DNA of 2,232 nt from the NCBI RefSeq assembly GCF_003334335.1, contig NZ_QOWQ01000092.1. The stretch is one strand, 5' to 3'. The stretch is from Escherichia coli. Lineage in GTDB: Bacteria; Pseudomonadota; Gammaproteobacteria; Enterobacterales; Enterobacteriaceae. Position numbers and translations under genes: made by a program. A model generated the notes under the pieces. The model searched no databases, was not told the DNA's origin, and was given only the letters and a program-made list of their open reading frames with translations. Positions 1-2,232 of the stretch are shown in pieces (position 1 is the stretch's first letter; every line of letters starts with the position of its first letter).

Positions 1-2232
1 GGAGGCTCACACCTTTGACTCTGTGAAATTTATTCTGACCACCGCTCTCGCCGGTGGTCTGCTGGCTGTTCCCCTGCAGATCAAAAACATTCAGCAGAAC
101 GGGATCACACCAGAAGATATCAGCAAGGAAATTAACGGGTATTACTGCTGTTTTTATACTGCCTTTTTCCTTATGGCGTGTTCTGCATGCGCACCATTGA
201 TCGCGTTACAGTACGATATTTCACCGTCACTGATGTGGTGGGGCGGGTTGTTGTACTGGCTGGCTGCATTAGTGACGCTGCTATGGGCGGCCAGCCAAAT
301 CCAGGCGCTGAAAAAACTGACCTGTGCCATCAGCCAGACACTGGAAGAACAACCGGTGCTCAACAGTAAATCGTGGCTGACCAGTTTGCAAAACGATTAC
401 AGCCTTCCTGACTCACTGACGGAGCGCATCTGGCTGACGCTCATTTCTCAACGGATTTCCCGGGGAGAGCTGAGGGAATTTGAACTGGCAGACGGAAACT
501 GGTTACTGAACAATGCCTGGTATGAAAGAAACATGGCAGGGTTTAACGAACAGTTGAAAGAGAACCTGTCATTCACACCTGATGAACTGAAAACGCTCTT
601 CCGGAACCGCCTGAATTTATCACCGGAAGCGAATGACGATTTTCTCGATCGTTGCCTGGACGGCGGTGACTGGTATCCCTTTTCAGAAGGTCGCCGTTTT
701 GTATCATTCCATCACGTGGATGAGCTTCGTATCTGTGCCTCCTGCGGGCTGACAGAAGTACATCATGCCCCGGAAAATCATAAGCCGGATCCGGAATGGT
801 ACTGCTCCTCTCTTTGTCGCGAAACAGAAACACTGTGTCAGGAAATTTATGAACGCCCTTACAACAGCTTTATTTCCGATGCAACGGCGAATGGTCTGAT
901 TCTCATGAAACTGCCGGAAACCTGGAGTACAAATGAGAAAATGTTTGCTTCCGGAGGGCAGGGACATGGGTTTGCCGCTGAACGGGGAAACCATATTGTC
1001 GACAGAGTCCGTCTGAAAAACGCACGGATCCTCGGTGATAATAATGCCAGAAATGGAGCAGACAGACTGGTCAGCGGAACAGAAATCCAGACGAAATATT
1101 GTTCAACTGCAGCCCGTAGCGTCGGTGCGGCATTCGACGGACAAAACGGACAGTATCGTTACATGGGAAATAATGGCCCCATGCAACTGGAAGTCCCCCG
1201 TGATCAGTATGCCGGCGCTGTTGAAACCATGAGGAATAAGATCCGCGAAGGTAAAGTACCCGGTGTAACCGATCCCGCAGAAGCATCCCGGCTGATTCGT
1301 CGGGGACATCTGACTTATACTCAGGCCCGTAATATCACCCGGTTCGGGACCATCGAATCGGTCACTTATGATATTGCCGAGGGTTCGGTTGTCAGTCTGG
1401 CGGCCGGAGGGATCAGTTTTGCCCTGACGGCATCGGTCTTCTGGCTCAGCACCGGCGATCGCGATGCTGCCCTGCAGACAGCTGCTGTCCAGGCAGGAAA
1501 AACCTTCACCCGCACACTGGCTGTCTACGTCACAACCCAGCAACTCCACCGGCTCAGTGTTGTTCAGGGTATGCTGAAGCACATTGATTTTTCGACTGCC
1601 AGCCCGACTGTCCGACTGGCTCTTCAGAAGGGGACCGGTGCAGGAAATATCAGTGCCCTGAACAAAGTGATGAAGGGTACGCTGGTGACATCTCTGGCAC
1701 TGGTAGCTGTCACAACCGGCCCTGACATGATCAAAATGTTGCGGGGACGGATCTCCGGTACGCAGTTCATCAGGAATCTTGCCGTGGCATCTTCCGGTGT
1801 GGCAGGTGGTGCTGTCGGGTCAGTGGCGGGCGGAATACTGTTCAGTCCACTGGGACCATTTGGTGCACTGACAGGGCGTGTGGTTGGCGGTGTTCTGGGG
1901 GGAATGATTGCCTCCGCTGTATCAGGAAAAATTGCCGGAGCGCTGGTTGAAGAAGATCGCGTCAAAATTCTGGCAATGATTCAGGAGCAGGTGACATGGC
2001 TTGCCGGCAGTTTCCTGCTGACCGGACATGAGATTGAAAATCTGAACGAGAATCTGGCCCGTGTTATCGATCAGAATGCTCTGGAGATCATTTTCGCCGC
2101 CGGTATACAACAACGGGCCGCGACCAATATGTTAATCAAACCACTGGTGGTCAGTATCATCAGGCAACGCCCCGTCATGGAATATGATGCATCCCATCTC
2201 GGCAATATGGTTAACCGACTGGAAGAAGCATT
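1..2232 (+). CDS. Large uncharacterized membrane protein, internal fragment (partial at 3' end, probably also at 5' end); codon phase begins at nt 2
   Basis: Manual translation of the frame starting at nt 2 gives 743 consecutive sense codons (nt 2-2230) with no stop; the other two + frames hit stops within the first 26 nt (TGA at 16-18 and 24-26). Leu is mostly CTG and the translation has protein-like features (hydrophobic helix-length segments, Cys4 motif, GxxxG repeats). Translation begins EAHTFDSVKFILTTALAGGLLAVPLQI... and ends ...HLGNMVNRLEEA. Product identity is unassigned. Confidence 0.85.
29..292 (+). other. N-terminal cluster of three predicted transmembrane helices (aa 10-27, 46-69, 77-97 of the window translation)
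   Basis: Three uncharged hydrophobic stretches of 18-24 residues: FILTTALAGGLLAVPLQI, GYYCCFYTAFFLMACSACAPLIAL, LMWWGGLLYWLAALVTLLWAA, separated by short polar loops; the third is followed by the positive residues KK (aa 104-105). Judged by eye, no predictor run. Confidence 0.6.
734..817 (+). other. Putative zinc-ribbon-like Cys4 motif (C245-x2-C248 ... C268-x3-C272) with flanking His residues
   Basis: Translation reads HHVDELRICASCGLTEVHHAPENHKPDPEWYCSSLCRETETLC: two Cys pairs 19 residues apart, His at aa 237, 238, 254, 255, 260, and a fifth Cys at aa 279. The spacing matches a small zinc-ribbon knuckle pair; metal binding is inferred, not shown. Confidence 0.45.
1388..1447 (+). other. Internal hydrophobic, Gly/Ala-rich segment (aa 463-482), possible transmembrane or membrane-inserting helix
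   Basis: VVSLAAGGISFALTASVFWL is uncharged and helix-length, followed by the polar STGDRD. A shorter hydrophobic stretch LVTSLALVAVTTG follows at aa 561-573 (nt 1682-1720). Confidence 0.4.
1778..1948 (+). other. Glycine-zipper (tandem GxxxG) hydrophobic region, aa 593-649; candidate membrane hairpin or oligomerisation module
   Basis: LAVASSGVAGGAVGSVAGGILFSPLGPFGALTGRVVGGVLGGMIASAVSGKIAGALV contains G602-x3-G606-x3-G610, G621-x3-G625-x3-G629-x3-G633, G630-x3-G634 and G642-x3-G646. About 55 residues carry only two charged side chains (R626, K643), with a Pro-Leu-Gly-Pro turn-like centre at aa 616-619. Confidence 0.55.

Follow-up and report, generated by a model that had tools for sequence, protein, structure and literature searches.

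What protein is encoded by a stretch of Escherichia coli DNA that reads as one uninterrupted frame from end to end, and what might that protein do? The stretch, referred to here as the window, comprises 2,232 nucleotides (nt) of contig NZ_QOWQ01000092.1 (RefSeq assembly GCF_003334335.1). Frame 2 of its plus strand is open throughout, with 743 codons and zero stops, and the open reading frame (ORF) continues past both window ends. By an arithmetic estimate, the chance of a stop-free run of this length is about (61/64)^743, or roughly 1e-16, and the remaining frames of the window are full of stops. The window DNA matches many E. coli chromosomes at 100% identity and holds an internal part of yeeR, codons 89 to 831 of 838 (window positions 2..2232, plus strand). 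Its start codon is 263 nt upstream of the window, and its stop codon is completed 22 nt past the other end. The complete 838-codon coding sequence is found in NZ_CP023366 (strain 1428, locus L001) at L001:14738-17254, where it is annotated as the hypothetical protein WP_001315618.1. Because of its position between agn43 (flu) and irmA within a CP4-44-type island, the window gene is the full-length form of yeeR. Throughout, residue n of full-length YeeR corresponds to window nt 3n-265 to 3n-263, a mapping checked on 15 residues; all features described below lie on the plus strand unless stated otherwise.

A preliminary description of the window, made from the sequence alone, had not recognized the encoded combination of features as a named family. 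We found only YeeR and the Pfam family YeeR_C (PF27347) as matches, both without known function, and no full-length match to a well-characterized housekeeping or structural protein. YeeR is a member of PF27347: the 99%-identical cluster P0001 and nearly all of the homologs carry a precomputed match to this family, and relatives in AFDB are named "Inner membrane protein YeeR." The family is already named but functionally uncharacterized. Our leading explanation, which we hold tentatively, is that YeeR acts as the membrane-tethered nuclease effector in an island-borne defense or conflict system that mostly consists of a single gene. We favor it because of the protein's architecture, its intact catalytic-type constellation, the conserved nuclease-plus-membrane module with exchangeable N termini, and the defense and mobile-element surroundings of the family.

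A predicted PD-(D/E)xK fold with an invariant catalytic-type constellation

We built an AlphaFold2 model of full-length YeeR from 40 homologs (mean pLDDT of 77). In this model, residues 405 to 535 (window positions 950..1342) form an alpha/beta domain that comes after a zinc knuckle and a long helix and carries the alpha-beta-beta-beta-alpha-beta core of the restriction-endonuclease-like, or PD-(D/E)xK, fold. Structural matches of this domain include the FdxN excision-controlling factor protein (2okf; score of 5.8), NgoMIV (5.7), N.BspD6I (5.6), and Upx (5.5), along with Hje/Hjc, AF1548, YaeQ, VRR-NUC, NucS, FokI, HindIII, MspJI, PaqCI, the influenza PA endonuclease, Can2, Tox-REase-5, and HamA. 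Active nucleases dominate these matches.

The preliminary description had seen no catalytic or nuclease signature in the protein, a statement that this domain contradicts. The model places E415 (window positions 980-982) on helix 1, D442 (1061-1063) at the start of strand 2, Q451 (1088-1090) and K453 (1094-1096) as a Q-x-K motif on strand 3, and E485 (1190-1192) on strand 4. All five residues are invariant in 221 of 221 nonidentical relatives, 32 of which have "PD" at positions 441 and 442. As modeled, the catalytic-type constellation of YeeR is complete and follows the canonical PD-(D/E)xK arrangement as a Q-x-K variant. Substitution of Q for E is known in Mrr-type enzymes. Further invariant residues outside the catalytic set are H410, N418, D422, Y454, Y475, and P487. 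We regard the assignment of residues 405 to 535 to the PD-(D/E)xK nuclease fold as well supported.

Sequence profiles did not narrow this assignment. Pfam-A searches with the window protein, 40 full-length homologs, and 40 diverse relatives returned only sub-threshold glycine-zipper-type matches and variable N-terminal domains, with no nuclease, helix-turn-helix (HTH), or zinc-finger family. NCBIfam returned nothing, and PDB sequence searches with the single protein and with a domain profile gave nothing meaningful. Membership of the nuclease-fold domain in the Mrr family was rejected at the sequence level (hhalign probability of 1% against E. coli Mrr). Since the fold and motif are present and no profile matches, we assign the domain to the superfamily and not to any member family.

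Domain architecture upstream of the nuclease fold

The three hydrophobic helices previously taken for an N-terminal anchor do exist. They are, however, transmembrane (TM) helices 4 to 6 of a six-helix bundle, as judged from hydropathy and the model, and do not form the N terminus, since TM1 to TM3 are encoded upstream of the window. TM4 spans residues 95 to 116 (window positions 20..85; model helix 93 to 120, pLDDT of about 90), TM5 spans residues 136 to 158 (143..211), and TM6 spans residues 165 to 187 (230..298). The zinc motif and glycine zipper of the earlier architecture were correctly seen, whereas a tandem winged-helix region and the nuclease fold, both seen in the AlphaFold2 model, had been missed.

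The predicted tandem winged-helix region (residues 205 to 330; window positions 350..727) repeats a strand-helix-helix-hairpin unit twice, with a pLDDT of 85 to 92. In a Foldseek search of the PDB, winged-helix domains were the sole credible matches to this region, namely, those of ESCRT-II (tandem), SelB, and STIV F93, at probabilities of 0.87 to 0.97, yet with E values of 0.17 to 0.5. No HTH family was among the Pfam matches of the 40 full-length homologs.

Next to this region is a cysteine cluster (C333, C336, C356, C360, and C367; window positions 734..838; codons verified) within the motif EWYCSxxCxxTExxC, a predicted zinc-binding, treble-clef-like knuckle. The spacing is C333-x2-C336-x19-C356-x3-C360, plus C367, and all five cysteines are invariant across the 40 homologs. 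The Cys4 motif noted earlier as zinc-ribbon-like is real: the model sets the first pair (CxxC) on a beta-knuckle and the second pair at the N terminus of a helix, a predicted treble-clef geometry instead of a two-knuckle ribbon. The spacing and the "WYCS" resemble the pattern of TRASH/FCS/MYND fingers (C-x2-C-x(19-22)-C-x3-C, with (F/Y)CS before the third cysteine), and YeeR agrees with this pattern in both respects. Zinc-finger Pfam families had zero matches among the same 40 homologs.

C-terminal membrane module and topology

Downstream of the nuclease fold, four hydrophobic segments (residues 549 to 570, 644 to 662, 683 to 703, and 707 to 733) make up a second membrane module. The first is a hydrophobic helix (window positions 1382..1447; hydropathy of 1.7 to 1.8; model helix 539 to 572), and the second is a shorter one (1667..1723; hydropathy of 1.5; model helix 638 to 668). 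The last two form a glycine-zipper helical hairpin (residues 683 to 733; window positions 1784..1936; codons verified), where the pLDDT falls below 50. As anticipated in the preliminary description, this is a glycine-zipper module: G694, G698, G713, G717, and G721 are invariant in the homolog alignment, and a GxxxG or small-xxx-small pattern is repeated in the hydrophobic helices (GVAGGAVGSVAGG...GRVVGGVLGGMIAS). Pfam matches to glycine-zipper families are sub-threshold (C19orf12 at 0.02 to 0.03, Gly-zipper_Omp in five members at E ≤ 0.1, and a weak DUF1269 match), and one RefSeq homolog is annotated as a "glycine zipper family protein." The only match in PHROGs was a weak one to a tape-measure protein over the glycine-rich membrane region, which we treated as compositional.

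A C-terminal helical domain follows (residues 738 to 831 within the window, positions 1949..2230), which forms the end of YeeR_C and has conserved L761, E765, P802, and R811 (alignment and model). Beyond it, most of the 121 long-form homologs (alignment A1) have a small-hydrophobic C-terminal tail, which ends in -AA in 66, -VA in 19, and -PA in 5; the E. coli copy ends in ELPA (L001:17234-17254, just downstream of the window). From its sequence, this tail resembles an ssrA-like degron, which suggests that the protein may be under proteolytic control.

The N-terminal bundle has six TM helices; therefore, the N terminus and the soluble block (residues 188 to 548) are on the same side of the membrane. 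The Cys4 zinc site, winged helices, and nuclease fold, themselves predicted from the model, argue that this block is cytoplasmic. Should all four segments of the second module cross the membrane, the C-terminal domain would be on that same side as well.

YeeR_C is a widespread, accessory-type family

An exhaustive search over 1.84 billion representative proteins (E ≤ 0.001) recovered 1,199 YeeR-related protein clusters from many phyla. Full-length, collinear homologs (29 to 68% identity, 805 to 882 amino acids [aa]) occur in many Gamma- and Betaproteobacteria. Shorter and longer forms (roughly 350 to 1,200 aa) match residues of about 400 to 815 only, a span that equals YeeR_C and runs from the nuclease-fold domain through the membrane module to the C-terminal helical domain. 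The N-terminal region of YeeR is lineage specific and is replaced elsewhere by Sel1 or TPR repeats, TerB, zinc ribbons (all identified by Pfam), and other domains. AFDB names among structural relatives include "SEL1-like repeat protein," "TerD domain-containing protein," and "Chaperone protein DnaK."

Some of these domain types are also encoded by separate genes. Sel1 proteins abut YeeR_C genes in Bacillota (L036:3065-5044, L056:6518-8491, L064:11563-13122, L085:11583-13544, and L091), and Sel1 is fused to YeeR_C in other lineages, which suggests that Sel1 at the Bacillota loci is a conserved YeeR_C partner. A protein that is TerB-like by eye, with no significant match, abuts the start of the YeeR_C gene in three loci. 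The same domain types are found both fused and neighboring, which argues for a functional link. In Clostridia, three further small-protein families (109 to 157 aa) abut YeeR_C genes (L029:9062-9457, L060:9032-9430, and L063:9023-9439; upstream ORFs in L045, L057, L077, L089, and L094; downstream ORFs in L029, L048, L049, L054, L060, and L090); one is TerB-like by eye, and two are without a detectable family. These small proteins could be regulators, immunity factors, or sensors.

The distribution of YeeR_C is patchy and of an accessory type. A single peptide pattern identified 345 loci among 100,044 species genomes, spanning Proteobacteria, Bacillota, Cyanobacteria, Lentisphaerae, Riflebacteria, Acidobacteria, Parachlamydiales, and Campylobacterota. 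Plasmids rarely carry the family (11 of 72,556 records, several being mislabeled chromosomes), and it was found in 1 of 50,697 phage records, where the copy lies between an endolysin and an invertase, in moron territory. The possibility that YeeR is a phage or conjugation structural protein was rejected, as the gene is nearly absent from phage and plasmid collections.

Genomic neighborhoods include defense and mobile elements

YeeR_C neighborhoods are of accessory and defense types, in line with the accessory setting (defense, toxin, or transfer) that had been proposed for the window. Long forms neighbor a RES-Xre toxin-antitoxin pair in Pseudomonas; HicAB, a TIR protein, and IS66 in Methylomonas; BrxE, GIY-YIG, PLD, and an integrase in Herbaspirillum; HepT-MNT, IS21, and an integrase fragment in Deefgea; and CBASS, antirestriction, SSB, ParB, and integrase genes in Alcaligenes. 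On metagenome contig SRR19514071_124215 (L009:1-12837), a 492-aa short form interrupts a BREX locus: encoded on the opposite strand, it has PglZ on one side and a DarT-NADAR pair on the other, with a PglX-like methyltransferase downstream; this YeeR_C protein is thus encoded inside a BREX and DarTG island. A wider survey applied a simple ORF caller to 78 loci, grouped 383 neighbor ORFs into clusters, and annotated representatives. In five Clostridia loci, PDC-S01 (E value of 3e-107) neighbors YeeR_C. WYL regulators (BrxR/CapW type) typify defense loci, and among the neighbor ORFs, 9 (5 plus 4) matched WYL and 6 matched WCX, while small HTH_3 repressors of the CapH/control-protein type were found in seven to nine. 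On a Lactococcus plasmid, a WYL gene is directly upstream of the YeeR_C gene.

The most regular arrangement is a same-strand array in Enterobacter (two loci) and Serratia (L016, L024, and L022), in which a WYL regulator, PDC-M09A (E value of 1e-119), and PDC-M09B (1e-214) are followed by the YeeR ortholog as the last gene, 40 to 43 nt downstream of PDC-M09B. WYL was confirmed by PADLOC in one Enterobacter locus. In the Enterobacter metagenome-assembled genome (MAG) at L016:5568-11335, the gaps within the array are 3 to 43 nt, and convergent PDC-M27C-B-A genes come next. In Enterobacteriaceae, PDC-M09, which is itself only a computational candidate of PADLOC, may thus include an unlisted third component. 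YeeR_C proteins also match PDC-M09B directly, partially and at E values of 4e-6 to 5e-7 versus 1e-214 for the neighboring true member, with weak PDC-M09A matches too; this similarity is far below family level. Homology of YeeR to PDC-M09A or -B was rejected, as BLASTP gave no support and hhalign probabilities were under 10% (0.3% for PDC-M09B), and adjacency alone was kept as evidence.

The E. coli locus and the published record

In E. coli, the CP4-44-type island that carries yeeR between agn43 and irmA (locus L001) also holds a YeeP-like GTPase, DUF905, DUF932, an antirestriction protein, YeeS (RadC/JAB), YeeT, and CbeA/CbtA. About half of the complete E. coli genomes (2,582 of 5,426) carry yeeR, in up to five places per genome as full or partial copies. 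Approximately 30% of the carriers have partial copies only, through a K-12-type 3' deletion, 5'-deleted forms, or an IS600 insertion. Partial copies match only window positions 1 to 1258 or 1125 to 2232, and NZ_CP050498.1 (H1/H28) is among the decayed examples; the 5'-deleted form is annotated as a "YeeR family protein," and the IS600 element is inserted within the gene.

The K-12 protein (b2001, "inner membrane protein YeeR," of the CP4-44 cryptic prophage) is the product of the same gene, which is also downstream of flu/agn43. It has 510 aa, of which residues 1 to 507 are 100% identical to those of the full-length form and the last three are unrelated. K-12 YeeR is a 3'-truncated remnant that ends inside the nuclease-fold domain and is without the entire C-terminal membrane module, whereas the window form is the intact one of 838 aa. 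The truncation has been described (PMC6480617; PMC4807369), and irmA and neighboring genes are deleted at the K-12 locus (PMC6480617). Because the laboratory copy is truncated, work in K-12 cannot show the function of yeeR.

The gene has stayed a "y-gene" without assigned function, although it is cotranscribed with the well-studied Ag43 adhesin in uropathogenic E. coli (UPEC), and YeeR has been called uncharacterized (PMC4807369; PMC6480617). In UPEC, agn43, yeeR, and irmA form a single OxyR-repressed transcript (PMC4807369). In strain 042, irmA is driven by its own promoter (PMC9431211). In K-12 derivatives, flu and yeeR are coinduced in oxyR and gcvB mutants (PMC8614746). A role of YeeR in IrmA secretion is ruled out by a published experiment, in which IrmA was released without YeeR and Ag43 (PMC4807369). 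The searchable literature contained no paper joining yeeR with nucleases or defense, no report of antiphage or antiplasmid protection by expressed YeeR, no published experimental function, and nothing relevant on PDC-M09, PF27347, or YeeR-like proteins.

Two further observations concern the E. coli sequence. The window has antisense ORFs of 159 and 113 codons (positions 1103-1582 and 1624-1965, minus strand) within the conserved coding region, which in a G+C-balanced gene have most likely arisen by chance. A 4-kb contig labeled as part of an Oxalobacter sp. MAG (JAHAYL010000019.1) carries a yeeR copy behind an autotransporter beta-domain ORF, and a 150-aa nuclease-fold stretch of this copy is 99% identical to that of E. 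coli; the contig looks like E. coli DNA binned into the Oxalobacter MAG.

Proposed mechanism and alternative explanations

By prediction, YeeR is a polytopic inner membrane protein that consists, in order, of six TM helices, two winged helices in tandem, a Cys4(+1) zinc knuckle, the PD-(D/E)xK-fold domain, the glycine-zipper membrane module, and a helical C-terminal domain. As a membrane-tethered nuclease effector, it would use its variable N-terminal part for targeting or sensing, and its nuclease would cleave nucleic acid, such as entering phage or plasmid DNA, on the inner side of the membrane. The membrane module would keep the enzyme away from the chromosome and might oligomerize. The cytoplasmic location of the soluble domains, the nuclease activity, its substrate, and the defense role are what we infer for YeeR. 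A bolder version of this proposal, which we consider doubtful, would make YeeR_C an as yet unrecognized class of PD-(D/E)xK nucleases, embedded in the membrane and spread across phyla, that destroy invading DNA at the point of inner-membrane entry. In that version, a zipper oligomer would sit at or around the entry site, the exchangeable N termini would set which invader or host entry machinery is recognized, and the system would be phase variable in E. coli through the agn43 Dam/OxyR switch. If true, YeeR_C would be a second, unrelated example of discrimination between self and nonself DNA by the location of a nuclease at the membrane, and part of E. coli immunity would be phase variable together with aggregation. 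More immediately, a nuclease active-site signature flanked by DNA-binding-type domains and set between two membrane modules gives a testable hypothesis for a family of more than 1,000 protein clusters.

Several observations weigh against YeeR being a membrane-tethered nuclease effector. Neither Pfam-A nor the PDB profile search links the domain to a named nuclease family, and the comparison with E. coli Mrr was equally negative, at the 1% given above. No defense hidden Markov model was matched beyond the weak PDC-M09B similarity, which hhalign does not confirm. The neighborhood survey is descriptive and not statistical, with a crude ORF caller and no matched control, and at the Dyella long-form locus, we saw nothing suggestive and no mobile or defense genes. 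In E. coli, yeeR is wired to an adhesin operon and not to a recognizable defense operon, and the searchable literature is without an experiment tying YeeR to phage or plasmid restriction. The positive-inside signal is too weak to fix the topology of the protein. Lastly, conservation of the membrane module equals that of the nuclease domain, so the module may be more than an anchor.

The membrane-depolarizing idea of the preliminary description survives as a rival and not as the leading explanation. YeeR would then be an abortive-infection effector that kills by permeabilizing the membrane through an oligomeric glycine-zipper pore or depolarization, with the PD-(D/E)xK-fold and winged-helix domains serving as a nucleic acid sensor or gate. 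The zipper glycines are invariant, all family members keep the membrane module, even those with no other TM segments, and the weakly matched glycine-zipper families include pore-forming bacteriocins; the defense island contexts serve this explanation equally well. However, enzyme-derived sensors usually lose their catalytic residues, and the strict invariance of E/D/QxK/E in 221 of 221 relatives argues against a degenerate sensor. Similarity to characterized membrane effectors in PADLOC consists of low-complexity matches only, and AlphaFold2 offers no confident pore-like assembly for residues 670 to 737. We consider this explanation unlikely, but because the zipper is conserved just as strictly, YeeR may form pores or have both roles. 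The catalytic-type residues also bear on whether YeeR could be a noncatalytic, Ter-like membrane stress or scaffold protein whose alpha/beta domain binds a small ligand or partner. Consistent with such a protein are the TerB domain, the TerB-like neighbor gene, the TerD and DnaK names in AFDB, the many invariant residues beyond the catalytic set (H410, N418, D422, Y454, Y475, and P487), and the lack of a profile match to nuclease families. A complete E...(P)D...QxK arrangement on the right secondary-structure elements, with fold matches that are mostly active nucleases, makes it quite improbable.

Slightly less improbable, and still below the pore-forming alternative, is that a membrane nuclease serves the CP4-44-type element itself instead of a general antiphage system, either by excluding competing islands and plasmids or as an addiction toxin checked by proteolysis. 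Such an island-selfish factor would fit the integrative islands, where yeeR lies beside antirestriction, RadC/JAB, DUF932, and CbtA/CbeA genes, the toxin-antitoxin pairs found elsewhere, the up to five full or partial copies per E. coli genome, and the degron-like -AA or -VA tail of 85 of the 121 long forms. It does not fit the rarity of the family among the 72,556 plasmid records (11, several being mislabeled chromosomes) and the 50,697 phage records (1), and no cognate immunity or antitoxin gene is conserved beside the proteobacterial long forms. The cotranscription of agn43, yeeR, and irmA under OxyR repression in UPEC (PMC4807369) and the coregulation of flu and yeeR in K-12 derivatives (PMC8614746) could instead make YeeR an accessory factor of the Ag43/IrmA surface-protein operon, with an envelope function in adhesion or secretion. 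This is the least probable of the explanations, as IrmA is released without YeeR and Ag43 (PMC4807369) and has its own promoter in strain 042 (PMC9431211), homologs in Enterobacter, Serratia, Pseudomonas, Methylomonas, Herbaspirillum, Deefgea, and Alcaligenes have no autotransporter neighbor, and the predicted domains are of a nucleic acid-binding type.

Comparison with known systems

Parts of YeeR resemble several known groups of proteins. With Gly-zipper_Omp/YMGG, C19orf12, and the class IIc bacteriocins, it shares small-xxx-small or GxxxG helices in a hairpin, with weak Pfam matches, but the YeeR zipper belongs to a module of some 420 residues in which it always accompanies the nuclease-fold domain. 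With nucleases of the Mrr/Hjc/NucS/CdiA-CT type, it shares the alpha-beta-beta-beta-alpha-beta core, an acidic residue on helix 1, (P)D starting strand 2, and QxK on strand 3. It differs from them in having no detectable profile relationship, in the setting of its domain between two membrane modules, and in invariant residues of its own (HG before the helix, DNNAxNG, and EVPxDQY), which mark a separate family.

For the membrane-tethered nuclease effector that we tentatively favor, the closest functional parallel is SNIPE, a protein with a TM segment, DUF4041, and a GIY-YIG domain that cuts lambda DNA during injection. In SNIPE, membrane anchoring prevents self-cleavage, and the N terminus is the variable, specificity-determining part (bioRxiv 10.1101/2025.11.03.685801). 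Both would be single-gene systems, and YeeR is predicted to share with SNIPE an inner membrane anchor, a DNA-binding region, a nuclease domain that is the most conserved part, and a highly variable N terminus. The two are not homologous: GIY-YIG and DUF4041 were not detected in YeeR, which has a PD-(D/E)xK fold instead. Whereas SNIPE has one membrane segment, YeeR has six plus about four and adds a zinc knuckle and a glycine zipper. By analogy, SNIPE is what YeeR most plausibly works like.

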